Shown here one piece after another: positions 43,585-64,000 of a stretch of 64,000 nt of DNA. The notes beneath the pieces are model-generated. The model was not told where the DNA came from. It did no database searches and saw only the letters and a list, made by a program, of their open reading frames with translations. The stretch covers positions 224,001-288,000 of the forward strand of contig JBFWWG010000005.1 in the NCBI GenBank assembly GCA_050246315.1. Reading direction: 5' to 3'. The position numbers and the translations under genes were made by a program. This DNA comes from Nitrospiraceae bacterium. Its GTDB lineage: Bacteria > Nitrospirota > Nitrospiria > Nitrospirales > Nitrospiraceae. Numbering within the stretch: the stretch's first letter is position 1; each line of letters starts with the position of its first letter.

Positions 43585-44856
43585 ATGAATAGAACCTCGC
43601 AGAACTCCACAGATCGCCTCCGGCAGGCTTTGCGGGAGAAATCGCGTGAAGTGGAGGTGCTTCATCGCATCAGTGATTCCATCAGCAACACGCTGGATCT
43701 CGAATCCGTCCTGAAACACATCGTGGATGTGGTGGTGGAAGTCACGAACGCCGACGCCTGCCTCCTGTATTTGTTGTCGACCGGCAAGGATGAACTGGTG
43801 CTTCGCGCGTCCAAGAATCCCCACCCGAGGTTGATCGGCCGCATTACCCTCGGTTTGGGCGAAGGCATCACGGGCTGGGTGGCTCGGGAGCGCACGAGCG
43901 TGGTGATCCCCAACAACGCAAGCGACGACACCCGGTTCAAGGTATTTCACAACCTACCTGAAGATCGGTACCAGGCGTTCGTGTCGGTGCCGATACTGAC
44001 GAAGAAGGAAGTGGTGGGTGTCATCAATGTCCAACACAAGCGTCCCCGCCGCTATCAGGCGGACGAGTTGGCGCTCCTGACGACGATCGCCAACCAAGTG
44101 GGCGGGGCCATCGAGAACGCGCGGCTCTATGATGAAATGCGGAGGAAAGTCCTGCAGGTGGATACCCTCTCTCAGGTCTCGGAAACGGTGACGTCCAACC
44201 GGTTGATTGAGGATATCTTTCAGTTGATCGTTGCCATGGTCGCGCAATTGATGAACTCCAAGATTTGCTCGATCATGCTCTTAGACCACGGCAAAGGTGA
44301 ACTGCGCATCGTGGCCACACAGAGTTTGAGCGAGGCCTACCGCCGGAAGCCGAACCTGAAGATCGGCCAAAGTATCAGTGGCCGGGCCGTGCAGGAACGC
44401 CGTCCCATCATCGTGCCGGACGTAACCAAAGAACACGACTATATGTTCCCGGATATCGCCAAGAAGGAAGGGCTCTGCTCACTGCTGTCCGTGCCCATGC
44501 TGGTAAGGGAGAAGGCGCTTGGTGTGATCAATACCTACACGTCGGTCCCCCACCACTTCACAGTTGAAGAAACCAAAGTTGTGCAAGCCATTGCCAATCA
44601 AGCCGCGATCGCCATCGAGCATACAACGTTGCTCGACAAGTCGTTTGAAATGCAAGAAGCGTTGGCGGTGCGGAAGGTTGTGGAGCGTGCCAAGGGTTAC
44701 CTGATGCGAACGCGAAGATTGAGCGAGGAGGAAGCCTTCCGCCTGATTCAGCGTCAAAGCATGACCTTGCGTAAATCGATGCGCGAAGTCGCCGAGGCGA
44801 TTCTTCTCGCCGGGGAGATCGAGGAACAGGCTGCCGGAGGACGCAAGCTCCCATAA
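43585..44856 (+). CDS. GAF-GAF-ANTAR RNA-binding antitermination regulator
   Basis: Two GAF repeats (GEGITGWVA...SVPI...VGVINV; GQSISGRAV...SVPM...GVINTY) and C-terminal ANTAR (RKVVERAKGYLM...LSEEEAFRLIQRQSM...MREVAEAI); start uncertain. Confidence 0.92.
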   Translation: MNRTSQNSTDRLRQALREKSREVEVLHRISDSISNTLDLESVLKHIVDVVVEVTNADACLLYLLSTGKDELVLRASKNPHPRLIGRITLGLGEGITGWVARERTSVVIPNNASDDTRFKVFHNLPEDRYQAFVSVPILTKKEVVGVINVQHKRPRRYQADELALLTTIANQVGGAIENARLYDEMRRKVLQVDTLSQVSETVTSNRLIEDIFQLIVAMVAQLMNSKICSIMLLDHGKGELRIVATQSLSEAYRRKPNLKIGQSISGRAVQERRPIIVPDVTKEHDYMFPDIAKKEGLCSLLSVPMLVREKALGVINTYTSVPHHFTVEETKVVQAIANQAAIAIEHTTLLDKSFEMQEALAVRKVVERAKGYLMRTRRLSEEEAFRLIQRQSMTLRKSMREVAEAILLAGEIEEQAAGGRKLP

Positions 44857-44863
44857 CCCACAT

Positions 44864-45770
44864 CTATGCTTCTCCGGTTTCCTCCACAGGCTCCAATAGG
44901 TAGTATGCCGGCCATGCCGTGACCGGACTTTCCGGGGACATTCGGAGAGTTTCAGAGGCGTCTTGCCGACGAGAATACCTGCCGACTCTATCTGGTCGAG
45001 TCGCGCTGGCCCGATGGCTTCCGGTGTCCCCCGTGCGGCTCTGCGGCAGCGCTTGAGCTGCCAGCGTGGCTGCTGTGGTGCTGCCAGAGGTGCGGTCGGG
45101 AGACGTCGGTGACGGCCGATACGGTGCTACACCGAACGCGACTCCCGCTGACCCAGTGATTCTGGGGCAGCTACCTGGTCATGACCCACAGGACGGATTT
45201 GTCGGCACTCCATCTGCTACGACAACTGGGGATCGGCCGTTACGAGACGGCCTGGGTGATGCTCCAGAAACTCGGGCAGGCCATGGTGTGGCTCCACCGC
45301 GAGCGTTTCGACAAGGCGTTCGTGGTCGGGGCTGTGGATGTGCACGGACTCGCTTCTGGCTGGGTCCGCCTCCAGGTCATTCCTGACGCCTTGGCGCCGT
45401 CCCTGACCGGCTTCGTCACGCGGGACATGGAGCCGGGCATCATCGTCGTTACCGATGGATGATCAGGATACGCGCCGCTCTCCGAGCTAGGATACCGGCA
45501 TCGTCCACGCCCTCAGCGGGAGCCGGAACTCGCCGAAAAGATCCACCCACGAGCTCACCGTGTCTTCGGGAATCTGAAAACTCAGCTGCGCGGGACTCAC
45601 AACGCGGTCGGACACCAACATCTCCAGGCGTACCTGGACGAATTCACCTTCCGCTTCAATCGGCGCCGGACTCCGGCGGCCGCCTTTCAATCCCTGCTCG
45701 GCCTCGGGCGCCAGCGATCAGCCACGACCTGCGACCAGTTGTATGCGGTGGAGTCAACCGGATAAGCATG
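44864..45770 (+). mobile_element. Decayed IS1595-family insertion sequence
   Basis: Imperfect TIRs ATGCTTCTCCGGTTTCCTCCAC (44866-87) / GTGGAGTCAACCGGATAAGCAT (45748-69), 19/22 match; 8-bp direct repeat ACCCACAT at 44856-63 and 45771-78. Confidence 0.9.
44905..45765 (+). pseudogene. IS1595-family (ISXO2-like) transposase pseudogene
   Basis: Single frame with RWPDGFRCPPCG/CQRC Zn ribbon, YETAW.MLQK, VVTDG, NLK..LRGTH, YLDEFTFRFNRR. In-frame TGA at 44920, 45157 and 45460; the EVDE catalytic segment appears deleted. Confidence 0.9.
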
Positions 45771-45871
45771 ACCCACATGAATCATGACGGTTCGTGACGT
45801 TTCACCCGTTGCTCTTCGAGCGCAACGTGCTGCACGGCGGCTGCATTGGAAGCGGTCATGAATAATACGGA

Positions 45872-46918
45872 CTAGCGCTTCGTGGATTCCTGTCCGGATG
45901 CAGGGGGCGCGGTTCGCGGCGACTGTTTTCGGGATCCGGAGGACCCGCGCTGTTGGATCGTCAGCTCTTTCAGCTCTTGCTTCAGCTGGCTGATCTCACT
46001 CCGCATCCGTTCAAGTTCCAGATCTTTCCTCACCACCAAGTCCTTCAGTTCGCGGACCTCTTCGACCGTGGGGGCCGCCGCCGAGGGGAGTGATTCCGAG
46101 AGGCCGGCCGTGGGAACTGGGGCGGAGACTGGTGGGTCCGCCACTCGAGGAAGGGCTTGGTAGTCCACGGCCACCGATGGCAGATCGGCCGGCAACGGTA
46201 ACACCACCGGACGAGACAGATCCGTCCGTAGGGCGGAGGCCGGCGAGAATAGCAGCGTCCGGCCGGCGAGGTCTTTTGAGTAGGCCTGAGTAGAGTCAAT
46301 CGCACGGAGCGGGTCGGGGCGGCCGCGGTATATGGTTAAGATGATGTGCAGGGTCCGCGAACGCACGTACAGGGCGCCTGCGGTTTCTTCCGCTGTCGGG
46401 CCGATCCGTGATTGCGCTGCATCGATGTCTGCGGAAGATCCCCGGCTGGATGAAGAATTGACGGATGAGGTCAAGATCCGAAAGCTGACAAACTGATCGG
46501 CTGTGGCCGAGGAGAGGGCGGTGCTGATCAGCGGAGCAAGAAACTGCGCATCGTCGGGAGAAAGGACCGGAATGACGGGTTGCCGGTCGTTTGTAGTGCC
46601 AGGCGTGGTGTTCGATCTCTGCTGCCCAAGCGAAAGGCCGCTCAAACTGGCCTGAATGACCGAGGATTCCAGAATGATCGGGTGAGAAGCCTGGAGGCCG
46701 GTCACCGATCGAAATCCGGCGGTGGAGCCCCGTTGGGGAACAGTTTCAAGGATGATGGATCCTCTTGGTCCGTCGTACAGCATGATTGGCTTCGGCGACA
46801 ACAGTCCGCAGCCGGTCATGTGGGCGACGAGGCAGGTCATCACCATCAGGATGGCCCGAGGGAGAAGAGGATGATCCTTCTGTGAGCGGGTTTGAGTGCG
46901 GATACCCAACTGATTCAT
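45872..46918 (-). CDS. Uncharacterised lipoprotein with C-terminal coiled coil
   Basis: Hydrophobic stretch plus lipobox-like MTGC; ASHPI; heptad ELKDLVVRKDLELERMRSEI; paralog of the neighbouring gene; start uncertain. Confidence 0.7.
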   Translation of the reverse strand: MNQLGIRTQTRSQKDHPLLPRAILMVMTCLVAHMTGCGLLSPKPIMLYDGPRGSIILETVPQRGSTAGFRSVTGLQASHPIILESSVIQASLSGLSLGQQRSNTTPGTTNDRQPVIPVLSPDDAQFLAPLISTALSSATADQFVSFRILTSSVNSSSSRGSSADIDAAQSRIGPTAEETAGALYVRSRTLHIILTIYRGRPDPLRAIDSTQAYSKDLAGRTLLFSPASALRTDLSRPVVLPLPADLPSVAVDYQALPRVADPPVSAPVPTAGLSESLPSAAAPTVEEVRELKDLVVRKDLELERMRSEISQLKQELKELTIQQRGSSGSRKQSPRTAPPASGQESTKR

Positions 46919-47046
46919 AGCGTTCCGAGAATCGACGGTGCAAACCGACGTCCGAACGCAGGCTCTCTTCGGATGAAGGACCGAGGTGCCTTCACAGGAG
47001 GCAAGGGCAAACAGACGGTTGCAGGAAGGGAGCTGATGCCGGATCA

Positions 47047-47988
47047 TCATTCACGCGGCCTCGATGTGGGTTGTTTCAACTCTTGCCGGATCGATTCCAC
47101 CTCCTTTTTCAAGGCGTCGATCTCTTCGTTCTTCTTGTTCAGGTCGGTACGAATCTGTTGCAACTCCTGTTCGTCGTCGGCTGTCGGCTGGCGCTGGTCC
47201 TTCAACTCTCCTGCTCTGTCGGACGCTGGTCCCCCGGCTGTCGCCGATCCGGCAGCGGCCGATCCATCGGTGCCCGGCAGTGTGGCGAGCATTTCGTAAT
47301 CAATCACAAACGTTGTGTCGGGTGTCGCACCGAACAGTCTGTGCTTTTTCTGGTGGTTCGGTTTCAATGCTGCGTCAGGCACAAAAGCCAAGACCTTATC
47401 CCCTAGGCCGGATGTATCCGGCACACGGCGATTAGCCATGTTGATGGAATCGGCTCGCTCAGCTCGCTTCCGATAACGGGACACCGTGAGGCGCAGGGCA
47501 CCATCAGTAACCAACAGATGGCCGGATGTGGTTTCGAGCAGGGTTGATTCGGCGAGCGGTGGTTCGGAGGAGCCAACTCCCGCTCCTCCCCGGCTGGCAT
47601 AGGACAGGGTTGCAGGATAGTTGTGCACCCGAAATCCGACTTGCTGATCAGGAGCAGCCTGAGCCAACGCGCTCGAAATATAGGGGGCGATAAATCGGAT
47701 GTCCTCGTCAGAGAAGGCCCGTTGTCCCGGAGGGGTCTTGGCAAACACCCGCTGCATCGTCGTCGATTCTTCTCGCGCGATGACCCCCTGAAGAGCCCGC
47801 GTAATCAACTCCGCATCCAGCCGGATCGGATGAGCGGCTTGAAATGAACGGTCGGGATTGCGCTCCAGATAGACCGCCCCCTTAGGGGCCTCGTGAATCA
47901 TGAAATCGATATCCGAGGTTGTGGCGCACCCGAATGTGAGCAGGCATGAGACGACCAAGGTTGCAACGGGGATTGATCGCGGCGTCAT
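47047..47988 (-). CDS. Uncharacterised lipoprotein with C-terminal coiled coil
   Basis: Signal peptide plus TFGC lipobox; AAHPI; heptad LNKKNEEIDALKKEVESI; alternative start 48027. Confidence 0.75.
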   Translation of the reverse strand: MTPRSIPVATLVVSCLLTFGCATTSDIDFMIHEAPKGAVYLERNPDRSFQAAHPIRLDAELITRALQGVIAREESTTMQRVFAKTPPGQRAFSDEDIRFIAPYISSALAQAAPDQQVGFRVHNYPATLSYASRGGAGVGSSEPPLAESTLLETTSGHLLVTDGALRLTVSRYRKRAERADSINMANRRVPDTSGLGDKVLAFVPDAALKPNHQKKHRLFGATPDTTFVIDYEMLATLPGTDGSAAAGSATAGGPASDRAGELKDQRQPTADDEQELQQIRTDLNKKNEEIDALKKEVESIRQELKQPTSRPRE

Positions 47989-48114
47989 GGATGCCAGTCC
48001 TTTATGGCGGTTTTTCGGTGGCCACATGGTGATGGGCGGCAGTGTAGCACAGGACCTGCGTCCCTCCTACTGGGTCGAGACGGGGCCGGCCTCGATACAT
48101 TGGGAGAAAGACTC

Positions 48115-48144
48115 TTGACAGATTTCTCTCAAAACGCCTATAAA
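48115..48144 (+). promoter_or_regulatory. Sigma70 promoter of the urea operon
   Basis: TTGACA (48115-20), 18-nt spacer, TATAAA (48139-44). Confidence 0.7.
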
Positions 48145-48169
48145 CCTTCTCCAGATCATTGTGGGGTCT

Positions 48170-48228
48170 TAGAACAACGAAGTTCTACGGTCCCTCAGCC
48201 TTAGTGAGCGAAGGACAATGGCGTCCTT
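48170..48228 (+). promoter_or_regulatory. ANTAR-binding dual hairpin RNA element (urea operon leader)
   Basis: P1 TAGAAC-AACGAA-GTTCTA (48170-87); P2 AAGGAC-AATGGC-GTCCTT (48211-28); hexaloops with A1/G4 and C-G closing pair. Confidence 0.88.
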
Positions 48229-48268
48229 TTGGTCCATGACAATAATGGACCGGAAGGGCGTTTTTTTT
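48222..48268 (+). terminator. Intrinsic leader terminator (attenuator) overlapping P2
   Basis: 16-bp stem CGTCCTTTTGGTCCAT / ATGGACCGGAAGGGCG (3 G-U pairs) plus T8. Confidence 0.9.
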
Positions 48269-48330
48269 GTCCTACGCCCCTCCGGTCTTCTCACATCCGC
48301 CGGTGAGATGAGCAGACGAGGAGGGATGAC

Positions 48331-49722
48331 ATGAGATGGGCACTGAAGTCTGGGGTGTGGGTCGGGATCGTCGGGCTGGTGCTTGCCGTGACCGCACCGG
48401 CGGCGTTTGCCGAGGAACCGGCCGGACAGTCGACCGGAGGGGGACGCCTAACCCGTGAGCAGGAGCAACCAATTGCGCATCTCTGTGCGGGGTGCGTGGC
48501 GCCGATGTTTACCGACGGCAGTCAGGGGAAGATCGTACCGTACGGACGAATCGAATTGGACGGCATCTACAGCACCAGAAACACCAACCCTCTGGATCCC
48601 CAGCAGTTCAACGGCTATGGGACGGCGGCAGGTCGCCAAGAGAACAGTAGCTCGACCTTGAATCCTCGCTACAGCGTGTTCGGCCTTCGTGCCGACCGGA
48701 CCGACGGGACGAATTCCCTCACCGGCGTGGTCGAGGTGGATTTTTACGGGCAGAGCGACAGCGGCAATAACTTGCTGCCCCGCCTGCGGCTCGCCTATGT
48801 GAAGTACTCTCCCAACAACAACCGGACTCTCTTCACCATCGGTCAGGATTGGAATCCGATCATGGGGTTGCTGACAGATAATATTGACTTTTCCATCATG
48901 GGCTACACGGGCAATCTTTGGCAGCGTATTCCGCAAATCACCGTCAAGCACAACTTCACGGAAAACTTTGAAGGGCTGTTCACGGTCATGCGCTTCGAGC
49001 GCGGCCTGTCCAACTGTTGCGGCAACACGCAGATCCGGCCGACGGATGCCGGTTTTCAGGGCGGCGGGCCGGGCAGCACCGCTTCGTTCAACGATCCCGT
49101 GCAGATGCCGTACTTCGGCACCAGGTTCGCGTATCATGGAACGGACAATCTCGCCGGGACCATGGTGGCCGCCAACGTGGCCTATCGCTGGTACCGATCT
49201 GCGCCCATTCCGTTCAATCCGCTGGTCGGGGCTGCCTTCCAATCGGGGCAGAACATCAATTCGTATCTTGTCGGGGTTGAAGCCGTGCATCAGATCACCA
49301 AGCAACTGAGATTCTCGAGCGAGATCTCATACGGGCAAGCGCTCGGCAACGAGTGGTTCAGGTGGAACCAGGATCTGAACTGGTTCACCGGAGAGGAGGT
49401 TCGGACTCTAACCGGGTGGGTCCAATTGAGCTACGCCCATGCGTGGGACTATACCTTTCTCGCCGGGTATGGATGGGACAATCCGGTCGATTCGGATCTG
49501 CGCGGCAGCATCAATGCCTATGGGGCGGGCGGCGTGAACTCGAACATACAATACCAGTCCAACCAGCGGACGTATCTGACCGTGATCCATCCCGTGTGGG
49601 CGGATCTGATCATGGGCTTCGAATGGCAACACTTCTGGACGAATTGGGCCCAGCCGACGGGGTTGGCGTCCCAGCGCTTTCAGGCGGACATGTTCACGCT
49701 GTCGGCCTGGTACAACTTCTAG
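48331..49722 (+). CDS. Putative outer-membrane porin (DcaP-like), first gene of the urea operon
   Basis: Signal peptide AFA, YGRIELD, EVDFYG, PRLRLAY, IGQDW, alternating beta strands, C-terminal WYNF. Confidence 0.75.
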   Translation: MRWALKSGVWVGIVGLVLAVTAPAAFAEEPAGQSTGGGRLTREQEQPIAHLCAGCVAPMFTDGSQGKIVPYGRIELDGIYSTRNTNPLDPQQFNGYGTAAGRQENSSSTLNPRYSVFGLRADRTDGTNSLTGVVEVDFYGQSDSGNNLLPRLRLAYVKYSPNNNRTLFTIGQDWNPIMGLLTDNIDFSIMGYTGNLWQRIPQITVKHNFTENFEGLFTVMRFERGLSNCCGNTQIRPTDAGFQGGGPGSTASFNDPVQMPYFGTRFAYHGTDNLAGTMVAANVAYRWYRSAPIPFNPLVGAAFQSGQNINSYLVGVEAVHQITKQLRFSSEISYGQALGNEWFRWNQDLNWFTGEEVRTLTGWVQLSYAHAWDYTFLAGYGWDNPVDSDLRGSINAYGAGGVNSNIQYQSNQRTYLTVIHPVWADLIMGFEWQHFWTNWAQPTGLASQRFQADMFTLSAWYNF

Positions 49723-49753
49723 CTGCGCTTACAGAGAGAAAAGGAGTCTGACG

Positions 49754-51121
49754 ATGGATGTGACGCCTCATGATGAGATGAAGGGCACTGAGACCAGCAA
49801 CACGGGTCATGACCACGAACCGTCTCGGCGGGATCTGCTGGCGCAGGGGGTCAAGGCGACGGCCAGTCTGGGCGTCGCGGCGCTGCTCGGGAATCTCGGC
49901 CACTGGGCGCTGTCCTATGCCGCCGACCAGGAACCGATCAAGATCGGGGTGCTGCATTCGCTGAGCGGGACGATGGCTATCAGCGAGGTCTCGCTGCGGG
50001 ATGTCGTTCTGATGGCGGTCGGAGAGATCAACGCCAAGGGCGGGGTTCATGGCCGTAAGGTCGTGCCCGTCGTGGTCGATCCGGCTTCGAACTGGGATCT
50101 CTTTGCAGAAAAGGCCAAGCAACTGCTCCTCCAGGACAAGGTGGCGGTGGTGTTCGGTTGTTGGACCTCCGTGAGCCGAAAATCCGTGCTGCCGGTCTTC
50201 GAGAAGAACAACGGGCTGCTGTTCTATCCGGTGCAGTACGAGGGGGAAGAATGTTCCCGCAACGTGTTCTACACGGGGGCGGCGGTGAACCAGCAGGCCG
50301 TGCCGGCCGTGGAATTTCTGATGAGCAAAGAGGGAGGCGGCTACAAGAAGTTCTATCTGTTGGGGACAGATTACGTGTATCCTCGCACGACGAACAAGAT
50401 CCTGCGGGCGATGCTGTTGGCCAAGAAGGTTCCGCCAGCCAATATTATGGAGGAGTACACGCCCTTTCACCACCAGGATTATCAAACGATTGTCGGCAAG
50501 ATCAAGAAATTCTCAGCCGGCGGAGGTGCCTGCGTCATCAGCACGATCAATGGTGACAGCAACGTGCCCTTTTACAAGGAATTTGCCAATCAGGGCTTGC
50601 GGGCTGAGGATGCGCCGATCATGGCATTCAGCGTGGCGGAAGACGAACTGCGGGGGATGGATACGACGGCACTGGTCGGGCACCTGGCGGCCTGGAACTA
50701 CTACCAGAGCGTGGATGCGCCGGAGAACAAGAAATTCGTCTCCGATTTCAGGACCTACTGCAAGCAGAGCAATCTGCCGGACGGCGACAAACGAGTGACG
50801 GACGATCCCATCGAAGCCGCGTATTTCGGGGTGCACGTCTGGAAACAAGCGGTCGAGAAGGCCGGCTCCACCGAGGTGGACAAGGTACGCAAAGCGGTCT
50901 ATGGGCTGGAGTTTGACGCGCCGGGCGGCAGAAAAAAAATGGATGAAGCCAATCATCACACGCACAAACCCGTCCTGATCGGGGAGATCAGAAAGGACGG
51001 ACAGTTCAACATCGTCTGGCACTCGAAGGGTTTGGTCAAACCGGAACCGTGGAGCGAATACACGAACCCGGACAAGGGTTGCGATTGGGTGGCGCACCAA
51101 GGCACCTATCAGAAGAAGTAA
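49754..51121 (+). CDS. urtA: Urea ABC transporter substrate-binding protein (Tat signal)
   Basis: SRRDLL Tat motif; GVLHSLSGTMAISE, FGCWTSVSRK, YPVQYEG, DYVYPRTTN, AAWNYYQS. Confidence 0.96.
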   Translation: MDVTPHDEMKGTETSNTGHDHEPSRRDLLAQGVKATASLGVAALLGNLGHWALSYAADQEPIKIGVLHSLSGTMAISEVSLRDVVLMAVGEINAKGGVHGRKVVPVVVDPASNWDLFAEKAKQLLLQDKVAVVFGCWTSVSRKSVLPVFEKNNGLLFYPVQYEGEECSRNVFYTGAAVNQQAVPAVEFLMSKEGGGYKKFYLLGTDYVYPRTTNKILRAMLLAKKVPPANIMEEYTPFHHQDYQTIVGKIKKFSAGGGACVISTINGDSNVPFYKEFANQGLRAEDAPIMAFSVAEDELRGMDTTALVGHLAAWNYYQSVDAPENKKFVSDFRTYCKQSNLPDGDKRVTDDPIEAAYFGVHVWKQAVEKAGSTEVDKVRKAVYGLEFDAPGGRKKMDEANHHTHKPVLIGEIRKDGQFNIVWHSKGLVKPEPWSEYTNPDKGCDWVAHQGTYQKK

Positions 51122-51127
51122 GTCCGC

Positions 51128-52705: not shown

Positions 52706-52768
52706 GAAGTGTCAATCGTCATGGGTCAATCGTGATTGGAAAGAGAAATGTCCCTTGGCTGAGACCCG

Positions 52769-55423: not shown

Positions 55424-55821
55424 TGGTCCAGCGAAGATTGAGCAAGATTGTGAGCATGGCAGGCTCTGTGCTGCTGCTGAGTCTCTCTGCCTGTGCGACA
55501 ACCAGCTACAAGCCTTTGGAACAGACGACGGGCCAGGACGTAGCGCAAGTCGCCGAGAATGAATTTCGGGTGGAGTATCGAGCCGGACTGTTTACCCCGC
55601 AGAAACGGATGGACGACTATATCAAGCTGCGCTGCGCCGAGGTGACGCTCCAGCGAGGGTATGACTATTTCGAATTGGGTGAACGATTCGACAACGTGAT
55701 CTTTTCCCGGACCACTTCGGTGTTGCTCCGCGTGCATAAGGGCAAGATCCCCGAGGGGGCCACTCTGTTCCACGATGCCAGGCAGGTCATGACGGACCTC
55801 CGAGACCTTCCGAGGGAGTGA
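55423..55821 (+). CDS. Small uncharacterised lipoprotein between urtE and ureA
   Basis: Lipobox [17 protein letters not shown]; overlaps the urtE stop codon. Confidence 0.75.
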
Positions 55822-55856
55822 TTCGGTCACCAGGTTCGACCCGATGGAATGATACA

Positions 55857-56159
55857 ATGCATCTGACGCCGCGTGAACAAGAGAAACTCCTGATCTATGT
55901 CGCGGCCAAGCTCGCTCAGGAACGGAAGGCTCGCGGGCTGAAGTTAAACCATCCGGAGGCGGTGGCCTATCTCACGGCCGGGATCTTAGAAGGCGTCAGA
56001 GACGGACAGTCCGTGGCGGATCTCATGAGCTATGGAGCGACCTTGCTCACACGCGAGGACGTCATGCCGGGTATTGCGGAGATGATCCCTGAGCTGCAAG
56101 TGGAAGGGACCTTTCCCGACGGCACCAAGTTGGTGACGGTTCATCAACCGATTCGATAA
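55857..56159 (+). CDS. ureA: Urease gamma subunit
   Basis: [29 protein letters not shown]. Confidence 0.98.
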
Positions 56160-56167
56160 CGGACGCC

Positions 56168-56644
56168 ATGGCGACGAAGGCGACAAGATCAAGAGCTCGG
56201 AAGAAGGCGGTGACCAGGAAACGACCGATCCTCGTGCCTTCGGCCGGTCAGCGGTCGGTGGCCGTCGTTCCGGGAGAGATCTTACTGGCCGAAGGAGACA
56301 TCATTGCCTTGCACGGAAAGCAGACGATCGAGATAACCGTCGCCAACCAGGCGGATCGGCCGATCCAGGTGGGCTCGCATTGCCACTTTTTTGAAGTCAA
56401 TCGCGCGCTCAAGTTTGATCGCGAACAGACCTATGGCTTTCGGCTGCAAGTGCCGGCCGGGACCGCGGTCCGCTTCGAGCCGGGCGAAGAGAAACGGGTG
56501 ACGCTGGTCGCATGCGGAGGCAAGCGGGTCGCTTACGGCATCAACGGGCTCACCAATGGAAGGCTCGACGATCCGGAGGTGCGGGCGAGGGCGCTAGCCA
56601 AGGCGCGGGAATTGGGATTTCTGGGAGATCAGGTCTCACGATGA
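56168..56644 (+). CDS. ureB: Urease beta subunit (basic N-terminal extension)
   Basis: [26 protein letters not shown]. Confidence 0.97.
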
Positions 56645-58368
56645 AGCTCTCCCGCCGTCAGTATGCCGATCTCTACGGCCCGACAACAGGAGACCGGATC
56701 AGACTGGCCGATACCGAGCTGGTGATCGAAATCACCCGCGATCTCACGATGCCGGGGGAAGAAGCCAAGTTCGGTGGAGGGAAAGTCATCCGTGACGGAA
56801 TGGGGCAATCGCCTGCTGCCACGCGTGCCTCCGGTGCTTTGGATTTGGTCATCACCAATGCCGTCATTCTCGACTATTGGGGGATCGTCAAGGCGGACAT
56901 CGGGGTGCGCGACGGGCGCATCGCCGGAATCGGGAAGGCCGGCAATCCGGATCTCATGGACGGGGTGACTCCCGGCATGGAGATTGGTCCTGGGACGGAG
57001 GTCCTTTCCGCTGAGGGAAAGATCGTCACAGCCGGCGGCATCGATACCCACATCCACTTCATTTGTCCTCAGATCATCCATGAAGCGCTGGCGAACGGAC
57101 TGACAACCCTGATCGGAGGCGGAACCGGTCCTGCGACCGGAACCAACGCCACCACCTGCACGCCGGGAGCGTGGAACATTCATCGGATGCTGGAAGCGGC
57201 AGACGGTTTCCCCATCAATCTTGGCTTTCTGGGCAAGGGCAATGCGTCGCTTCCGGAAGGGTTGCGCGAACAGATCGAGGCGGGGGCCATCGGGTTGAAG
57301 CTGCATGAGGATTGGGGAACGACTCCGGCCACCATCTCGACCTGTTTGGATGTGGCAGAGGAGTACGACGTCCAGGTGGCGATCCACACGGATACCCTGA
57401 ACGAAGCCGGTTTCGTCGAGGATACGATCAAATCGTTCAAGGGGCGCACGATCCATTCGTTCCATACGGAAGGAGCCGGCGGTGGGCATGCGCCGGATAT
57501 CATCAAGGTCTGCGGCGAAGCCAACGTGCTCCCGTCGTCAACCAATCCCACCATGCCCTTCACCGTGAACACGATGGACGAGCATCTCGACATGCTGATG
57601 GTCTGCCATCATCTGAATCCGAGAGTGCCGGAGGATATTGCCTTTGCCGAATCGCGCATCAGACGAGAAACCATCGCGGCCGAGGACATCCTGCACGACA
57701 TGGGAGCGATCAGCATGATGTCGTCGGATTCGCAGGCGATGGGACGGGTCGGTGAGGTGATCATTCGGACCTGGCAGACCGCGCATAAGATGAAAGTCCA
57801 GCGAGGGGGGCTCGCGCCGAACGGTGCCGCTGGTGGCACGGAACGGCATGATAACTTCCGAGCTCGCCGCTATGTCGCCAAGTACACGATGAATCCTGCC
57901 ATCACTCATGGCATCGCGGATGAAGTGGGGTCGATTGAAAAGGGCAAGCTGGCCGATCTTGTTCTGTGGAAACCGGCCTTCTTCGGCGTGAAACCGGAAA
58001 TCGTGATCAAGGGCGGTTTTCCGATGTCGGCCGCGATGGGCGATCCCAACGCCTCGATCCCGACTCCGCAACCGGTCCTGACCAGACCCATGTTCGGGAG
58101 CTTCGGCCGGGCGCCCTATACGACCAGCGTCACCTTCCTCTCCGCGCGCGCGTTGGAACGGGAGGTGCCGCAATCATTAGGACTTCAGAAACGGGTCGCG
58201 GCCGTGCGGGGTTGCCGAGGGATCAGCAAACGAGACATGAAGCTCAACGATGCCCTGCCTCGGATCGAAGTGGATGCGGAGACGTACGAGGTCCGCGCGG
58301 ACGGTCAATTGCTCTCTTGCGATCCGTTGGCGGTGTTGCCGATGGCGCAACGGTATTTCTTGTTTTGA
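56641..58368 (+). CDS. ureC: Urease alpha subunit
   Basis: [54 protein letters not shown]: all Ni ligands present. Confidence 0.99.
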
Positions 58369-58375
58369 GTCCATC

Positions 58376-59062
58376 ATGGAGACGCTCGCGCTCGTCAACG
58401 GACTCCGCTTCATCGACAGCCTCTTTCCTACGGGTGGATTCGCCTATTCGTCTGGACTTGAAGCAGCTGTACAGGCCGGGCTGGTCCGCACGTCGGGCGA
58501 TCTAGCCCGCTATGTCGAAGATTCCTTGCAGTTTGGGCTTGGACCCAGGGAGGCCGTTGCAGCCGCACGTGCCCATCAGGCGGTCGTTCTGGGGCAACTC
58601 GCACCGGCGCTCGACGCCGATCGCGAACTCGACGCAATGAAACTGGTCAAGGAGGCGCGCCTGGCGAGCCGTCAAATGGGCCGACAGGTGATGCGGATCG
58701 CTGGGGCGCAGTCCGGCGCCGCACCGCTGTTGCTGCAATATCGTGAAGCGGTTGAGGAGGGGCGGACGCCCGGCCATTTCCCCGTGTGTCTCGGCTTGAC
58801 GCTCGGGACCATCGGGTGGACTCGATCGGCGACGGTCGCAGCCTTTCTCTATCATTCCATCGCAGGCTACCTCTCCGCTGCCCTCAAATTGCTTCCGATC
58901 GGCCAGCAGGAAGGGCAGCGATTGATCGAACGGTGGCTCCCGTTGGTGAGCCGGGTAAGCGAACATACTGATCCGGCCTCGTCATTGATCTCCTGGACAC
59001 CGATCCAAGATCTGTACGCCATGCGGCACCGCCGGTTGGCGTCACGATTGTTCCGGTCCTGA
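58376..59062 (+). CDS. ureF: Urease accessory protein UreF
   Basis: [28 protein letters not shown]. Confidence 0.95.
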
Positions 59063-59076
59063 GCGAGTGGCGGCAA

Positions 59077-59757
59077 ATGGGCATGGGCCACGACCATCAT
59101 CACCATCACGAGGGCGGCGGGAGGCCGACGCTGGCGCGCGGGCGCGGCATCCCGGTCATCGGGATCGGCGGGCCTGTGGGTTCAGGCAAAACGGCGTTGG
59201 TCGAAACGCTCTGTCACCGGTTGCGCCAGCGTGTCAGCCTGGCGGTGGTGACCAACGACATTTTCACCAAGGAGGATGCGGAGTTCCTCGCCCGGCGCGG
59301 CGCACTCCCGGCGGACCGAATCCTCGGGGTGGAGACCGGCGGGTGTCCTCACACGGCGATCCGCGAAGACGCATCCCACAATCAGGAGGCGTTGGACGAG
59401 CTGCTGAAACGACATCCCGATGTCGAATTGATGTTCGTCGAAAGCGGCGGCGACAATCTTGCCGCGACCTTCAGCCCAGAGCTCGTCGATGGCGTGATCT
59501 ATGTGATCGATGTGGCGGCGGGAGACAAGATCCCCCGGAAGGGTGGTCCCGGCATCACGCGATCCGACCTGCTCGTCATCAACAAGATCGATCTGGCCTC
59601 TTCGGTGGGCGCGGACCTCGGCGTGATGGAACGAGACAGCCGTCGCATGCGCAGCATGCTTCCCTTCATCTTTACGAACCTCCTGACCGGTCAAGGCACT
59701 CCAGAAGTCGTCCAATGGGTCGAGCAATGGCTGCCGCAACGAACCGCGAAGCCGTAG
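59077..59757 (+). CDS. ureG: Urease accessory GTPase UreG with His-rich N-terminus
   Basis: [27 protein letters not shown]. Confidence 0.97.
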
Positions 59758-60641
59758 TCTCCCCACACTCGCCCCACGTCTCGACTGGGTGGGACAGCTT
59801 GGTCGAAACGGTCGGCCGATGCGGGGATCTCGTCCTTTCGTTCGAACAGCGCCGCGGGCGTACCAAACTCAACAGGGTCCATTGCCGGAGCCCTTGGCAC
59901 TTCATGCCACCCATGGCGCTGGAAGGCGGTCGCTGCGCCTATACGATGCTGGTTAATCCGTCGGGGGGGCTGGTCGGCGGCGATCGCTTGTCGCTGACCG
60001 CCTCTATCGGACCGGATGCGCACGTACTATTCTCGACGCCATCGGCCACACGCATCTACCGTACAATCGGCCCAGAGGCGGCGCAGGAAATCACGTTGCG
60101 AGTCGGTGAGAACGCCAGGCTTGAGTGGCTACCGGACGTCACCATTCCCTATGCCGGGTCGTGTTTTCGCCAGTCGATCGACGTATCGCTCGCTCCCGGT
60201 GCGGCGCTGTTACTCTGGGACGCCTTAGCCTGTGGCCGCGTTGCCTGTGACGAGCGGTGGGCCTGTGCACAGTACCGGAACGAGATTCGAATCAGGGCTA
60301 TTTCGGGTGGAGAAGTCCTCGAACGTGTGGCGCTGACCCCGCATTTGAACGGTGTTGGGTTGGCGGACCCATGGAACTATGTGGCTTCGCTATTTATCGT
60401 TTCCGACACGGTCGCCTCATCTGCTTGGGAGGATCTCGAACGGGATCTGGATGATTGCATCGAGCAGCATTTCACCGAGGGAGAACTCCTGGCGGCCGTG
60501 TCGGAGCTGCCGGTTCCAGGTCTCGTGATGAAAGTGCTGACACGGACCGCGCCATCGCTGCACGAGCTCTATGGACGAGCTTGGGCGGTAATTCGAAAGC
60601 GCCTCTGGAATCGCGATTGTCCTGCCCTGAGGCGATATTGA
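59727..60641 (+). CDS. ureD: Urease accessory protein UreD/UreH
   Basis: [30 protein letters not shown] end; start inferred. Confidence 0.9.
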
Positions 60642-60691
60642 TTCTCCACGTTAGGGGAGGATGCCTACGAGGTCATGATGTCATGAAGTGA

Positions 60692-60721
60692 TTGACAGAT
60701 TCTTAGGGAGGCTGTTATAAG
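60692..60721 (+). promoter_or_regulatory. Sigma70 promoter of nadE-porin-amtB
   Basis: TTGACA (60692-97), 18-nt spacer, extended -10 TGtTATAAG; shares TTGACAGATT with the urea-operon promoter. Confidence 0.72.
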
Positions 60722-60737
60722 TGCGTCGAACATCCGA

Positions 60738-60796
60738 AGACAACGGCGTCTGACTGGATGATCTGACACCATATCAATGAAGGACAACGACGTCCT
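60738..60796 (+). promoter_or_regulatory. ANTAR-binding dual hairpin RNA element (nadE leader)
   Basis: P1 AGAC-AACGGC-GTCT (60738-51); P2 AGGAC-AACGAC-GTCCT (60781-96). Confidence 0.87.
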
Positions 60797-60833
60797 CTTT
60801 CCCCAGCGATGGGGATTGAGGGCGTTTTTTTTT
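60791..60833 (+). terminator. Intrinsic leader terminator overlapping P2
   Basis: Stem CGTCCTCTTTCCCCA / TGGGGATTGAGGGCG, GCGA tetraloop, T9. Confidence 0.9.
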
Positions 60834-60903
60834 GCCCGCGGGGTGCTGACCGGATTGCCGGAGCGTCCGGCGTGGATGACGAAGGCGGCGAAGAGTACGA
60901 CTG

Positions 60904-62679
60904 ATGCGCACGTTTCGAATCGCCATGGCCCAGATGAATCCCACCGTGGGGGATCTTGACGGGAATCTGCGGGCGATCATCTCTCGGGTGAAGGACGCCC
61001 GCAAGGCCAAGGCCGACCTCGTGGCCTTTCCCGAGCTGGCGCTCACCGGGTACCCTCCGGAGGATCTCCTGCTCAAGCCACGGTTCGTCGAGGACACCCG
61101 TCGTGCCCTGGAGACGATTATCCCGGAATGTCGTGGACTGGCGGTCGTCGTCGGCTACGTGGCCCAAGGAATCGGCGCCGAGCCGAAAAGGATGAAGCCG
61201 ACCGCCGTGCCGGCGGGACGGGACGAACTTTACAATGCCGCCGCGGTCATCGCGGATACCCGCCTGGTCACCACCTACGCCAAGCAGTACCTCCCGAACT
61301 ACGGCGTCTTCGATGAGAGTCGCTACTTTCATCCCGGGCAGCGCAATCCCGTCATTGTCCTGAACGGGACGACGATCGGCGTGAATATCTGCGAGGACAT
61401 CTGGCTGCCCGAAGGACCGACCAAGTTCCAGGCGGCGGCCGGGGCGGAAATCATCGTGAACATCAATGCCTCGCCTTTTCACATCGCCAAAAGCCGCCAG
61501 CGCGAACAGATGCTGGCCACGCGCGCGCGAGACAACCACGTCATTGTGACCTACACCAATACGGTGGGAGGACAGGATGAACTGGTCTTCGACGGGAACA
61601 GCCTGGTGTTGGACCAGACGGGTGAGGTGATTGCCCGGGCCAAGGCGTTTGATGAGGACTTCCTTGTGACGGATCTCTTTCCGACCGCGGTCGGACGGGG
61701 CCGCCTCGTCCAAGGAAGGAGAAGAGCCGCAACGAATCGGCCGCCTGGTTCGGTCGAGCGCATGACCGTCCCGGTGTATGAGGCCCCGGCGCATCCGGAG
61801 AGGATCGTACCGAGTCTTGTCGCACCGATGGACCAACTTGAAGAGGTCTACCGGGCGCTGGTGCTCGGCGTGCGGGATTATGTGACAAAGAACGGATTTC
61901 AACGGACGGTGATCGGCCTGAGCGGCGGGATCGATTCCGCGTTGACTGCCGCCATTGCAGTGGATGCGCTGGGAGCCACGAATGTGCTGGGTCTCTTCAT
62001 GCCCTCCCCCTTTACATCGAGAGAAAGCCACGAGGACGCGGCCGATCTGGCCAGGCGGCTCGACATCGAGTGCCGGACCGTCCCGATCGCCGGTCTTTTC
62101 GACTCATACCAAAGTGTCCTGGCTCCCACGTTTGCTGGACGTCCGTCCGACGTCTCCGAAGAAAACCTCCAGGCCCGCATCCGCGGCAATCTCCTCATGG
62201 CCATCTCGAACAAGTTCGGGCATCTCGTGCTCACAACCGGAAACAAGAGCGAGCTAAGCGTCGGCTACGCGACGCTTTACGGGGACATGGCCGGCGGATT
62301 CGCGGTGATCAAGGATGTGCCGAAGACGATGGTGTATGAGCTGGCGCGACACCGGAACGGCCTCGGCAACGCGGTCGTCATTCCCAAGCGGGTGTTGGAA
62401 CGCGCCCCGACCGCCGAATTGAGGCCGAATCAGCGCGATGAAGATTCGCTGCCTCCTTATCCCGTACTGGATCCGATCCTCAAGGCCTATGTCGAGGACG
62501 ACCGATCTCCCGACGAAATTGCCGCCATGGGATTCGAGCGTGCGACCGTCGAGCGCGTCATCACGCTGGTGGACCGCAGCGAATACAAACGCCGGCAGGC
62601 GCCGGTGGGCATCAAGATCACACATCGCGGGCTGGGAAAGGACCGCCGGATGCCGATCACCAATCGGTATCGAGGCTGA
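60904..62679 (+). CDS. nadE: Glutamine-dependent NAD+ synthetase
   Basis: Nitrilase-like domain (FPEL, K..LPNY.VFDE, ICEDIW) plus synthetase domain (GLSGGIDS, NLQARIRG, TGNKSE, SEYKRRQAP). Confidence 0.97.
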   Translation: MRTFRIAMAQMNPTVGDLDGNLRAIISRVKDARKAKADLVAFPELALTGYPPEDLLLKPRFVEDTRRALETIIPECRGLAVVVGYVAQGIGAEPKRMKPTAVPAGRDELYNAAAVIADTRLVTTYAKQYLPNYGVFDESRYFHPGQRNPVIVLNGTTIGVNICEDIWLPEGPTKFQAAAGAEIIVNINASPFHIAKSRQREQMLATRARDNHVIVTYTNTVGGQDELVFDGNSLVLDQTGEVIARAKAFDEDFLVTDLFPTAVGRGRLVQGRRRAATNRPPGSVERMTVPVYEAPAHPERIVPSLVAPMDQLEEVYRALVLGVRDYVTKNGFQRTVIGLSGGIDSALTAAIAVDALGATNVLGLFMPSPFTSRESHEDAADLARRLDIECRTVPIAGLFDSYQSVLAPTFAGRPSDVSEENLQARIRGNLLMAISNKFGHLVLTTGNKSELSVGYATLYGDMAGGFAVIKDVPKTMVYELARHRNGLGNAVVIPKRVLERAPTAELRPNQRDEDSLPPYPVLDPILKAYVEDDRSPDEIAAMGFERATVERVITLVDRSEYKRRQAPVGIKITHRGLGKDRRMPITNRYRG

Positions 62680-62789
62680 ACGGGGAAAGCGAGAGCGGAC
62701 GTTCAAGAGCCATGAACGAAGCGGTGAATCGCGGCATGGCAGGCGATCACCGGTTCCATGCAGTTGACATTCACCGACAAGGAGGGAGG

Positions 62790-63689
62790 ATGGCGCACCG
62801 GCTTCGATGGACAAAGGGTCTTTTGATCTGGCTCATGATGGCGGCCACGCTGTCGGTCGGCTCGACCGGTCAGGCGCAGGACGTTGAGGTGGTGAAACCG
62901 AAAGCGACGGACGAGTCGATGGACACAACCAAGCATCCGGTCGCGGTGACGATGGCCCTGCAGGCGGACAGTTTCTTCGGCTTCAATCCATCCGTATACG
63001 GCACCTATGGGCTGACCGACAATCTGGCCTTGGCCTTCAACTTCACCTACTGGACCATGATCTCCGGCGTCGGGGTCCACGACAACAATCCTTGGCTGGA
63101 GACCGACGTGGGGATCAATCTGACCCTCCTCGACAAGCGCCTCTCGATCACGCCGATGATCGGCTTCGTGCACGGACAACTGCTCTCCTCTCGCGGCGGC
63201 TTCTTTCCGAACGGCGGCGGCAGCGTCAACGAGCGCACGACCGCGTTTGAAGGGGCCGTGCCGAACATCACCGTGAATTACCTCGATCGGCTATTCGAAG
63301 CGGAATTTTACCTGGGCTATTACAAGGCGATCCGTAGCGAGGGGGGAAGCCCCAGTGACGGCGGCCCTGTTTGTCCACCGGTCGGGACGGGGGGCGGGAA
63401 TTGTCTCGGCTCGATCCCAGGCGGTGGCCGCGGCACCTGGGACTTTCTGCACTATTGGGTGAACGCGGGCTACCGGTTGAACAGCATGTGGTCGATGGGG
63501 ATCCATTATGAGCAACTCCTGAGCACGCGAGACAACAGTGCTTTCGGCGCGCAACAGGATTACTACCGGTGGCTCGGTCCCTACGCAGAGATGAAGCTGG
63601 CGGGCGGGATGGCGTTCCGGTTCACGGCGGGCCACGATTTCACCGACAACCAGGATTTCTACAAGGTGAAGTTCACGAAGACGTTCTAG
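62790..63689 (+). CDS. Uncharacterised putative outer-membrane beta-barrel protein
   Basis: SD GGAGGGAGG, signal peptide, aromatic alternating strands, C-terminal YKVKFTKTF. Confidence 0.7.
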   Translation: MAHRLRWTKGLLIWLMMAATLSVGSTGQAQDVEVVKPKATDESMDTTKHPVAVTMALQADSFFGFNPSVYGTYGLTDNLALAFNFTYWTMISGVGVHDNNPWLETDVGINLTLLDKRLSITPMIGFVHGQLLSSRGGFFPNGGGSVNERTTAFEGAVPNITVNYLDRLFEAEFYLGYYKAIRSEGGSPSDGGPVCPPVGTGGGNCLGSIPGGGRGTWDFLHYWVNAGYRLNSMWSMGIHYEQLLSTRDNSAFGAQQDYYRWLGPYAEMKLAGGMAFRFTAGHDFTDNQDFYKVKFTKTF

Positions 63690-63701
63690 TCGTAAGAGAC
63701 A

Positions 63702-63731
63702 GCAGGCGGCGCGGGTGTCCGCGCCGCCTGC
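63702..63731. repeat. Perfect 13-bp GC-rich hairpin, no U-tract
   Basis: GCAGGCGGCGCGG-GTGT-CCGCGCCGCCTGC. Confidence 0.75.
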
Positions 63732-63782
63732 AAGAGACGAGCGGGGAAGCGTGCGACCTCAGTGACGACAAGGGAGGGACGA

Positions 63783-64000
63783 GTGAGGACATATCCTGGA
63801 GGTTCCGGAACCGTGGGGCCGGTTCTCGCGATAGCCGCCGTGCAACTGATGGTGGCCGTCGTGAGCGGCGACCTCTGTTTCGCGCAAGGAGCGGAGCCGC
63901 CGCTGAAAGCCGATACGGGCGACACGGCATGGGTCTTGGCTTCCTCGGCGTTGGTGTTGGCCATGACCGTGCCGGGCCTGGCCCTGTTTTACGGCGGCCT
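63783..64000 (+). CDS. amtB: Ammonium transporter Amt (3'-truncated by window; not in ORF track)
   Basis: Translated by hand from GTG 63783: signal-like N-terminus then [29 protein letters not shown]. Confidence 0.93.

Follow-up and report, generated by a model that had tools for sequence, protein, structure and literature searches.

How does a bacterium of the family Nitrospiraceae decide when to scavenge nitrogen from urea, cyanate or ammonium, and which protein carries that decision? The question is raised by a stretch of 64,000 nucleotides (nt) from a Nitrospiraceae bacterium (assembly GCA_050246315.1, contig JBFWWG010000005.1, positions 224,001 to 288,000 of the forward strand), referred to below as the window. 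It encodes a protein with two GAF domains and an ANTAR domain. Downstream lie two leaders, each with two hairpins and an intrinsic terminator, one in front of genes for urea uptake (urt) and urease (ure), the other in front of the NAD+ synthetase gene nadE and an ammonium transporter gene (amt). Judged from sequence, these parts very probably belong to an ANTAR-type antitermination regulon for nitrogen scavenging. What computation shows is the anatomy of the leaders, their conservation including compensatory changes, a shared distribution of RNA and protein gene among genomes, and downstream genes that serve nitrogen assimilation. The argument starts from three elements:

43585-44856, plus strand: GAF-GAF-ANTAR one-component regulator, 423 amino acids from an ATG start (Pfam).
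48115-48268, plus strand: urt/ure leader (sequence, fold and terminator scan), scoring 33.4 bits with the covariance model R1, which was built without it.
60692-60833, plus strand: nadE leader (sequence and fold), with an orthologous leader in 19 of 30 nadE loci of relatives.

Both leaders share one layout of promoter, hairpin P1, hairpin P2 and terminator, exact to the base as the initial annotation had placed it. The urt leader begins with a promoter-like sequence (TTGACA at 48115-48120, an 18-nt spacer, TATAAA at 48139-48144), followed by P1 (48170-48187; tagaac AACGAA gttcta, loop in capitals), P2 (48211-48228; aaggac AATGGC gtcctt) and a terminator stem (48220-48262) with a run of eight T ending at 48268. 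The nadE leader carries TTGACA (60692-60697), again a spacer of 18, and TATAAG (60716-60721). Its P1 (60738-60751; agac AACGGC gtct) has a tcc/gga extension to 60733-60758 and is followed by P2 (60781-60796; aggac AACGAC gtcct) and a terminator (60791-60824) with nine T ending at 60833. All four hexaloops follow the pattern AAYGRM and are closed by a C-G pair, as first described; A at position 1 (A1) and G at position 4 (G4) are present in each. In the minimum-free-energy folds of both full leaders the terminator forms and uses the 3' arm of P2 as its 5' arm, which bears out the proposed overlap. The fold z-scores are -5.2 and -4.2, and an equal fold was reached in none of 200 shuffles. When the nadE leader is cut ahead of the 3' arm of the terminator, P1 and P2 both fold. 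The urt terminator is also listed by a terminator scan. A promoter scan, which accepts only a T as sixth base of the -10 hexamer, lists no leader promoters; these were read by eye only.

This anatomy is that of an ANTAR substrate RNA: two hexaloop stem-loops, A1 and G4, an overlap of P2 with the terminator, and an ANTAR protein encoded in the genome are all present. As described in the accessible parts of PMC3369931, binding by EutV requires A1 and G4 in both loops, the signature is common to NasR and AmiR substrates, and P2 overlaps the terminator. The premise that ANTAR proteins bind tandem A1/G4 hexaloop hairpins is consistent with the same parts of that paper.

The protein matches its initial description as well. 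Pfam places an ANTAR domain at the C-terminus (69.7 bits against a gathering cut-off of 27.3, E 1.7e-19) and GAF_2 in two stretches (E 4.3e-48), and no Pfam match to Response_reg is found in the 423 amino acids. With a C-terminal ANTAR domain, a sensor domain and no receiver, it belongs to the one-component class of PF03861 proteins. The ANTAR part aligns to Rv1626 (1s8n), 6wsh and NasR (4akk). A longer open reading frame (ORF) from a TTG at 43294 has a low-complexity N-terminus and is probably over-extended; the ATG at 43585 is the likely start on sequence grounds, since orthologues align from it. Orthologues with 59-98% identity occur in records of metagenome-assembled genomes (MAGs) of Nitrospiraceae, Nitrospirales and Manganitrophaceae, and distant GAF-ANTAR homologues in Gaiellales and Chloroflexota. 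A PF03861 profile search of the 4.39-Mb genome finds exactly one ANTAR domain, that of the 43585-44856 protein. An ANTAR protein other than this one, named at the outset as a possible cognate, is therefore unlikely.

To follow the RNA across genomes, a covariance model, R1, was derived solely from 15 nadE leaders, of which it took the P1-to-P2 segments and left the terminator outside. Orthologous nadE leaders were used instead of three paralogous leaders, the third of which was misaligned by MAFFT. The search covered the window and the adjoining locus L002 (contig C5, 287001-306358; an L002 coordinate plus 63000 gives the window coordinate). With filters off, the nadE leader scores 64.5 bits by construction and the urt leader 33.4; after the detected members of a set of five leader units described below, the next best match in these 83 kb reaches 11 bits. 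A total of 65 matches, 64 of them distinct, were aligned to the model from 58 sources (the window, L002, 16 nadE loci and 40 other loci). Among the distinct matches, standard pairs fill 94% of cells, compared with 44-55% once the 3' partner has been shifted by 1-3 columns. Compensatory changes are seen in five of the six P1 pairs, and the observed covariation score was reached by none of 500 shuffles. The loops are conserved in orthologous leaders, as would be expected of a binding site: G4 is found in 63 of 63 P1 loops and 64 of 64 P2 loops, A1 in 59 of 63 and 52 of 64, respectively, A2 is nearly invariant and position 3 is free. Moreover, in 63 of the 65 matches the next 60 nt hold a hairpin that takes up 5 nt or more of the P2 3'-arm region and then runs into a T-rich tail. 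The median energy of these terminator hairpins is -21.7 kcal/mol.

RNA and protein also occur together. In a family sample of 121 genomes, including the present one, R1 (E<=0.01) matches 110 genomes with 1 to 7 matches each, so the motif recurs in relatives as anticipated, and PF03861 is found in 105, nearly always in one copy. Both features are present in 104 genomes. The ANTAR gene without an R1 match is seen in a single genome (G034), and R1 without the gene in six (G015, G032, G063, G071, G078 and G094), which are 72-89% complete. Neither is found in ten genomes that are 95-100% complete. Seven of these (G046, G065, G081, G090, G099, G109 and G113, all 99% complete) belong to one genus, g10, whose other three sampled members have both features; the seven probably reflect one loss. 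Three genomes with both features (G006, G053 and G076) contributed no loci to any alignment or model, and without them the four classes count 101, 1, 6 and 10 of 118. In a phylum-wide sample searched at E<=0.001, R1 matches 8 of 121 genomes, all in the family, and none of 106 genomes of other families. The sequence version of the motif captured by R1 is thus family-specific, and other families may have other ANTAR leaders.

The co-occurrence bears on a rival explanation, by which the leaders act without an ANTAR protein, as a metabolite riboswitch or as plain attenuators or terminators, the ANTAR gene being there by coincidence. Nitrogen riboswitches exist in other phyla. Terminators alone would serve to insulate neighbouring operons, and ureD, the last urease gene, ends at 60641, only 50 nt 5' of the -35 hexamer of the nadE leader. 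As no terminator lies between them, the terminator of the nadE leader may also end urt/ure transcripts. On the other side, the link between the RNA and the ANTAR gene does not look coincidental, because both are present in 104 and neither in 10 of the 121 genomes. Judged by coordinates, at least 20 genomes have the ANTAR gene, a leader and nadE in immediate succession; in the present genome the urt/ure cluster sits between the ANTAR gene and the nadE leader. Furthermore, the hexaloops carry exactly the A1/G4 signature that ANTAR proteins require. Neither window leader matches an Rfam family at gathering score, no ANTAR-type family being among the matches; the urt leader region itself has no match even at E<=10, and around it the best Rfam hits are to unrelated families (E 0.43). 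Leaders that work independently of the ANTAR protein are hence considered extremely improbable, and antitermination by the ANTAR protein remains the preferred reading.

The reach of the regulon extends beyond the window. The initial annotation had counted two attenuated operons; the leaders of both are confirmed, and two was an undercount, as the genome holds four leaders with five units in total, all on one strand within ~28 kb. Downstream of amt (L002:762-2126) follow, in order, glnB, glnD, glnA, a cyanate/nitrate-type ATP-binding cassette (ABC) transporter, the cyanase gene cynS and an amt gene. Next come a third amt, a Rieske/cytochrome b pair, a multihaem cytochrome and nirA. The operon of the nadE leader probably continues into glnB and glnD. 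Further targets had been predicted at several nitrogen genes: leaders were indeed found before amt, cynS, a cynA-like transporter and nirA, and none before glnA, where no dual hairpin is seen in the upstream region (L002:5225-5602).

The third leader consists of two tandem units (L002:7095-7157 and L002:7199-7261; 27.6 and 28.1 bits with R1) behind a TTGACG-17-TATAAG promoter and 5' of the gene for the ABC-transporter binding protein, which is cynA-like. In unit 2, P1 reads cgagac GGGGCG gtctcg and P2 aggac AATGGC gtcct, and a strong terminator ends in nine T. The ATG of the listed ORF (L002:7250) falls inside the P2 loop, and the real start of the cynA-like gene is probably the ATG at L002:7346. 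The same tandem design is found in a genome of another genus (L141).

The fourth leader emerged from a genome-wide hairpin scan for paired A..G.. hexaloop hairpins followed by a T run. The scan returned 17 pairs, including both window leaders and a candidate at C5:299674-299810 (L002:12674-12810), 5' of the amt/cytochromes/nirA genes. Its P1 is tcctcac AACGGA gtgagga and its P2 gctggc AAAGGC gccggc; the terminator is built on GGCGCCG...CGGCGCC, followed by six T. The leader is kept in three genomes of the same genus and one of another, and partly in a fifth; across them, loop position 3 is C or T, and a U-G pair in P2 changes to C-G. Between its terminator and the amt start lies a ~95-nt repeat, twice in tandem (L002:12841-13040, C5:299841-300040). 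These two units account for the gap of ~320 nt between terminator and gene. With 80 BLAST matches in the genome and 50-65 in each same-genus genome, the repeat represents a dispersed small repeat family.

As for the other pairs from the scan, three on contig C12 are regularly spaced repeats and most of the rest have non-consensus loops. The C12 repeats (~49190-50238) are identical hairpins with 7-bp stems, ATTGCT loops and gaps of 52-53 nt; the region looks like a repeat array of the type of clustered regularly interspaced short palindromic repeats (CRISPR). Twelve other long-stem AAYGRM hairpins in the genome were inspected; they lie within coding sequence or are without a partner and terminator. 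By contrast with a chance expectation of ~0.5, a rough uniform-base estimate, the 14-mer GGAC[AG]ANG[AG]CGTCC occurs four times in the 4.39-Mb genome when both strands are searched. All four occurrences are the P2 of leader units, on the same strand and within 22 kb.

Which genes stand behind the leaders in relatives? Among the 30 best nadE loci of relatives, 19 have the leader (18 by pattern, plus L026), one is interrupted by N and ten are without. In four of the ten (L009, L013, L020 and L032) the ANTAR gene stops 50-150 nt short of nadE without an intervening leader, and nadE may be co-transcribed with the regulator there. A further 40 R1 matches from 27 genomes were chosen among the matches listed, other than each genome's best nadE match. 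P1, P2 and terminator are seen in all 40, and in 30 of them Amt, UrtA, CynS, an NMT1_2 ABC binding protein, NirC/NirA or GlnD is found among the first ORFs. The genes behind these leaders are as follows:

BBP2 porin, then Amt: 10 loci.
ORF of 227 amino acids without a family, then BBP2 porin cut by the contig end: 1 locus.
Amt first: 3 loci.
DUF6733 protein, then Amt: 2 loci.
ORF of 457-524 amino acids without a family, then UrtA: 8 loci.
ORF of the same kind, cut before the second gene: 1 locus.
Cyanase: 3 loci.
NMT1_2 binding protein and permease: 3 loci.
NirC and NirA: 1 locus.
ORF of ~300-350 amino acids without a family and with a lipoprotein-like N-terminus: 7 loci.
Unrecognised gene: 1 locus.

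The gene of ~300-350 amino acids (L122, L125, L127, L130, L135, L136 and L156) often stands behind tandem units. When one of these proteins was used as query, no homologue was found in the genome of the window. The gene is a candidate for a further nitrogen-regulated function.

From these parts a mechanism can be proposed. Each target operon would start at a sigma70-like promoter, from which a leader of ~110-150 nt is transcribed. By default, the leader would fold into a strong intrinsic terminator, and RNA polymerase would stop before the first gene. The active GAF-GAF-ANTAR protein, probably a dimer, would bind the A1/G4 hexaloops of P1 and P2. With P2 held closed, its 3' arm would be unavailable as the 5' arm of the terminator, allowing read-through. 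Leader 1 would thereby control a porin-like gene, urtABCDE and urease; leader 2 nadE, the DUF6733 protein and amt; leader 3, with its two tandem units, the cyanate/nitrate-type ABC transporter, cynS and amt; and leader 4 amt, the Rieske/cytochrome b pair, the multihaem cytochrome and nirA. We infer binding, read-through, activation under nitrogen limitation and the signal from sequence features.

The ANTAR protein might bind these RNAs with another outcome, acting under nitrogen excess or through translation or RNA stability. The polarity of the proposed switch is deduced from gene function alone, ANTAR RNAs of actinobacteria are reported to act by translational repression (accessible part of 10.1101/660928), and an effect on translation or RNA stability has been reported for mycobacterial ANTAR RNAs that overlap start sites. 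Here, however, P2 overlaps the terminator and not a ribosome-binding site in 63 of the 65 matches, and the start codons lie ~60-100 nt (up to ~320 nt) 3' of the T runs. A stabilised P2 can only disfavour the terminator, and all identified targets are scavenging functions that are induced under nitrogen limitation in other bacteria. Such a different outcome is accordingly rated as quite improbable, and relief of termination under nitrogen limitation is preferred. RNA-labelled sequencing runs (15 from eight studies, at contig level) were also consulted; none contains half or more of the sampled words of the stretch. Compared with 47500-64000, four runs from two studies match some sections of the urt/ure region and the nadE operon, and one exact RNA-library contig (run X3, record 17; 48213-48696) spans the urt terminator into the first gene. 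Such contigs show no ends, strand or level, and DNA may be present, so no conclusion was drawn from them.

What would the regulator sense? Its two GAF domains are the only candidate input visible in the sequence. GAF1 matches the PtsP/EI-Ntr model NF008283 at profile positions 5-162 (E 3.7e-38) and the NifA model TIGR01817 at positions 3-168 (E 2.3e-26); both scores are far below the whole-protein cut-offs, as expected for one domain. Structural matches of GAF1 include PDB 3ci6 (E 2e-22), 3trc and the NifA-like Nlh1 structure 4g3k. Its motif GEGITGWVA is invariant in 29 orthologues and is aligned with SEGLVGLVG of the PtsP GAF structure. The GAF domain of NifA responds to 2-oxoglutarate or P-II. 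That of PtsP binds glutamine, according to the accessible part of PMC4848567. Since the closest relatives of GAF1 are the PtsP and NifA GAF domains, the best guess is that glutamine and/or 2-oxoglutarate would be sensed directly by GAF1.

The nitrogen signal could instead arrive through a protein partner, such as P-II (GlnB/GlnK), uridylylation by GlnD, or a sequestering protein like AmiC or NasS, and not as a small molecule bound by a GAF domain. NifA GAF domains in several diazotrophs are controlled by P-II. Both glnB and glnD are in the same cluster, probably within the nadE-leader operon, and the genome has a single P-II gene of this type, which is 84-100% identical across the family. Partner-controlled ANTAR proteins are one of three common architectures, as stated in the accessible part of PMC7496416. 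A complex prediction of the full regulator with P-II gave a score of 0.00, which in a run without controls says nothing either way. Against a partner, the regulator has two complete GAF domains with invariant motifs (GEGITGWVA in GAF1), typical of ligand-binding modules, and the nearest relatives of GAF1 include the PtsP GAF domain, a direct glutamine binder. Nor does any partner gene consistently stand beside the ANTAR gene, its neighbours in many genomes being the leader and nadE. Control by a partner is thus deemed unlikely, and direct sensing by GAF1 is kept as the working assumption.

A wider claim is that the regulator serves as the master nitrogen regulator of the Nitrospiraceae in place of NtrBC, NtcA or GlnR, reading glutamine and/or 2-oxoglutarate through its PtsP/NifA-like GAF domain and acting wholly after initiation. 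Sigma54 itself is encoded in the window (rpoN, 33490-34962; 426 bits, above cut-off), and the genome has ~28 matches to sigma54 activators. None reaches the cut-off of the NtrC equivalog model TIGR01818 (best 476 versus 558.6 bits), and no NtcA match in the genome is above cut-off. Control by NtrBC/sigma54 finds no support in these searches: no NtrC equivalog was recognised, and the leaders carry TTGACA/TATAAN, no formal scan for sigma54 promoters having been run. No classical master nitrogen regulator was recognised, and one sigma54 activator could still act on the target genes or their neighbours. The role of sole master regulator is therefore put forward tentatively, as a possibility somewhat short of even odds.

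Several observations weigh against the proposed regulon or its details. Related genomes are non-independent, and the co-occurrence table overstates the number of events. P2 is invariant (GGAC/GTCC in all 64 distinct matches) and hence shows no covariation; this invariance is partly selected by R1 itself, and an alignment fitted to the model favours pairing. Twelve of the 64 P2 loops begin with G instead of A, and the P1 loop of cynA unit 2, GGGGCG, departs from A1. Two of the 65 matches are exceptions as to the terminator, namely cynA unit 1, where a perfect 18-bp hairpin takes the P2 3' arm and is followed by a weak U tail (CGATTT), and the cynS leader of one relative, which has no T run. The amt/nirA leader scores 7.6 bits with R1 and is undetected by it; its stem sequences differ, its linker is 46 nt long, and it is based on hairpin scan, fold and conservation. 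Ten of the 30 nadE loci of relatives are without a leader, the ANTAR gene abutting nadE in four, and 10 of the 40 other leaders stand ahead of genes without a recognised nitrogen function. Finally, what GAF1 shares with its relatives is the fold and one conserved motif and not a verified binding site, and the direction of the switch and the ligand are proposals.

The mechanism as such is not new, and ANTAR proteins have been linked to nitrogen genes since 2012. In diverse bacteria, Ramesh et al. 2012 (PMC3369931, accessible parts) report ANTAR RNA matches before genes for P-II, ammonium and urea transporters, urease and nitrite reductase. The predicted regulons of Desulfotomaculum and others (Table S2, as accessible) have leaders before the same kinds of genes, and are mostly tied to receiver-ANTAR proteins, unlike the present one. 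The accessible supplementary files of that study contain no Nitrospira, Leptospirillum or Thermodesulfovibrio entry. In the eut leaders of Enterococcus faecalis (accessible parts of PMC3369931), EutV/EutW likewise uses dual A1/G4 hexaloop hairpins, a P2 on the 5' base of the terminator and several leaders per ANTAR protein. EutV is a phosphorylated receiver-ANTAR regulator that serves ethanolamine, whereas two GAF domains, no receiver or kinase, and nitrogen-assimilation targets are found here. NasR, acting on the nasF leader of Klebsiella oxytoca, is also a one-component ANTAR regulator of nitrogen assimilation that works on a leader terminator; its NIT domain senses nitrate and nitrite for one operon, whereas the tandem GAF protein is predicted to control at least four operons. 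GnfK/GnfR of Geobacter sulfurreducens relieves premature termination under nitrogen limitation; in the leaders of nif genes, glnK and amtB, antitermination depends on GnfR (Ueki and Lovley 2010, PMC2995071, accessible parts). According to the same parts, this system is two-component, under a sigma54 master system and mainly directed at nif, while the regulator described here lacks a receiver and its targets have sigma70-type-looking promoters. In AmiC/AmiR and NasS/NasT, ANTAR proteins antiterminate operons that release or assimilate nitrogen, with the difference that a separate ligand-binding partner sequesters the ANTAR protein; none is evident here. The best sequence matches of GAF1, in PtsP (EI-Ntr) and NifA, are GAF domains that control a phosphotransferase or a sigma54 activator, whereas the output here is predicted to be RNA binding.

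The accessible part of Ramesh et al. 2012 states that no PAS- or GAF-ANTAR protein had been characterised at that time, the accessible part of the 2020 NasR paper (PMC7496416) mentions no characterised one-component ANTAR proteins besides NasR and PAL, and no GAF-ANTAR case was found in the accessible part of a 2025 review. A literature search, with most subscription journals outside its coverage, found nothing relevant that links ANTAR proteins or antitermination to Nitrospira or nitrifiers, in agreement with the early impression that the circuit is undescribed in Nitrospira-like nitrifiers. The points added here are the tandem-GAF sensor class, a family-wide regulon for urea, cyanate, ammonium and nitrite plus nadE, tandem units at one operon, and the paired loss of RNA and protein in one genus. 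If the reading as master regulator is true, the large GAF-ANTAR class would gain its first functional assignment and its first defined regulon, and there would be an explanation of how nitrite oxidisers time their use of urea and cyanate. In soils, waters and treatment plants, nitrification is the work of nitrite oxidisers of the Nitrospira type and complete ammonia-oxidising (comammox) bacteria. Reciprocal feeding between them and ammonia oxidisers is based on their use of urea and cyanate, and the regulation of nitrogen assimilation in them is largely uncharted. The proposed circuit would be family-wide, with one regulator, a recognisable RNA signature, and urt/ure, amt, cynS, the cyanate/nitrate-type ABC transporter, nirA and nadE as targets. 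The leaders could be used to annotate nitrogen-regulated genes in MAGs, including the conserved family-less gene of ~300 amino acids.

The genes behind the two window leaders are, in order:

48331-49722, plus strand: secreted protein of 463 amino acids, encoded first behind the urt leader and without a Pfam or NCBIfam family.
49754-55423, plus strand: urtABCDE urea ABC transporter (Pfam).
49754-51121, plus strand: urtA (Pfam; TIGR03407 585 bits, above cut-off).
51128-52705, plus strand: urtB, 525 amino acids (Pfam).
52769-53956, plus strand: urtC (Pfam).
Within 53701-54720, plus strand: urtD (Pfam).
54713-55423, plus strand: urtE (Pfam).
55420-55821, plus strand: small lipoprotein of the CC0125/CC1285 family, between urtE and ureA (NCBIfam NF047637, 71 bits).
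55818-60641, plus strand: urease genes (Pfam).
55818-56159, 56168-56644 and within 56512-58368, plus strand: urease gamma, beta and alpha (Pfam).
Within 58250-59062, 59077-59757 and up to 60641, plus strand: ureF, ureG and ureD (Pfam).
60904-62679, plus strand: NadE, glutamine-dependent NAD+ synthetase (Pfam CN_hydrolase and NAD_synthase; NF010588 752 bits).
62712-63689, plus strand: DUF6733 protein (PF20507, E 5e-52).
63762-64000, plus strand: 5' part of an ammonium transporter gene continuing past the window end (L002:762-2126; Ammonium_transp E 5e-126).

The 463-residue secreted protein is probably an outer-membrane porin, as suggested by ESM Atlas feature matches to porin clusters (0.97-0.98), which serve as a lead only. 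In eight loci of relatives, an ORF of 457-524 amino acids without a family likewise stands ahead of UrtA behind the leader. The product initially called a porin in the nadE operon turned out to be the DUF6733 protein; behind leaders of relatives, the position before amt is taken by a DUF6733 protein in 2 loci and by a BBP2 porin in 11. The ammonium transporter proposed at the window end was confirmed by its continuation beyond the window.

Between the ANTAR gene and the urt leader lie two adjacent ORFs (392 and 326 amino acids; 45872-48027, minus strand), which have weak coiled-coil-type Pfam matches only, below cut-off. The sole Rfam match in the window is 5_ureB_sRNA (RF02514, 95.6 bits) at 56787-57082 on the minus strand, antisense inside the urease alpha gene; it may merely reflect the conserved coding sequence which that family overlaps. 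UrtB carries an N-terminal extension with HEAT repeats (HEAT_2, E 8e-14) ahead of its permease domain.

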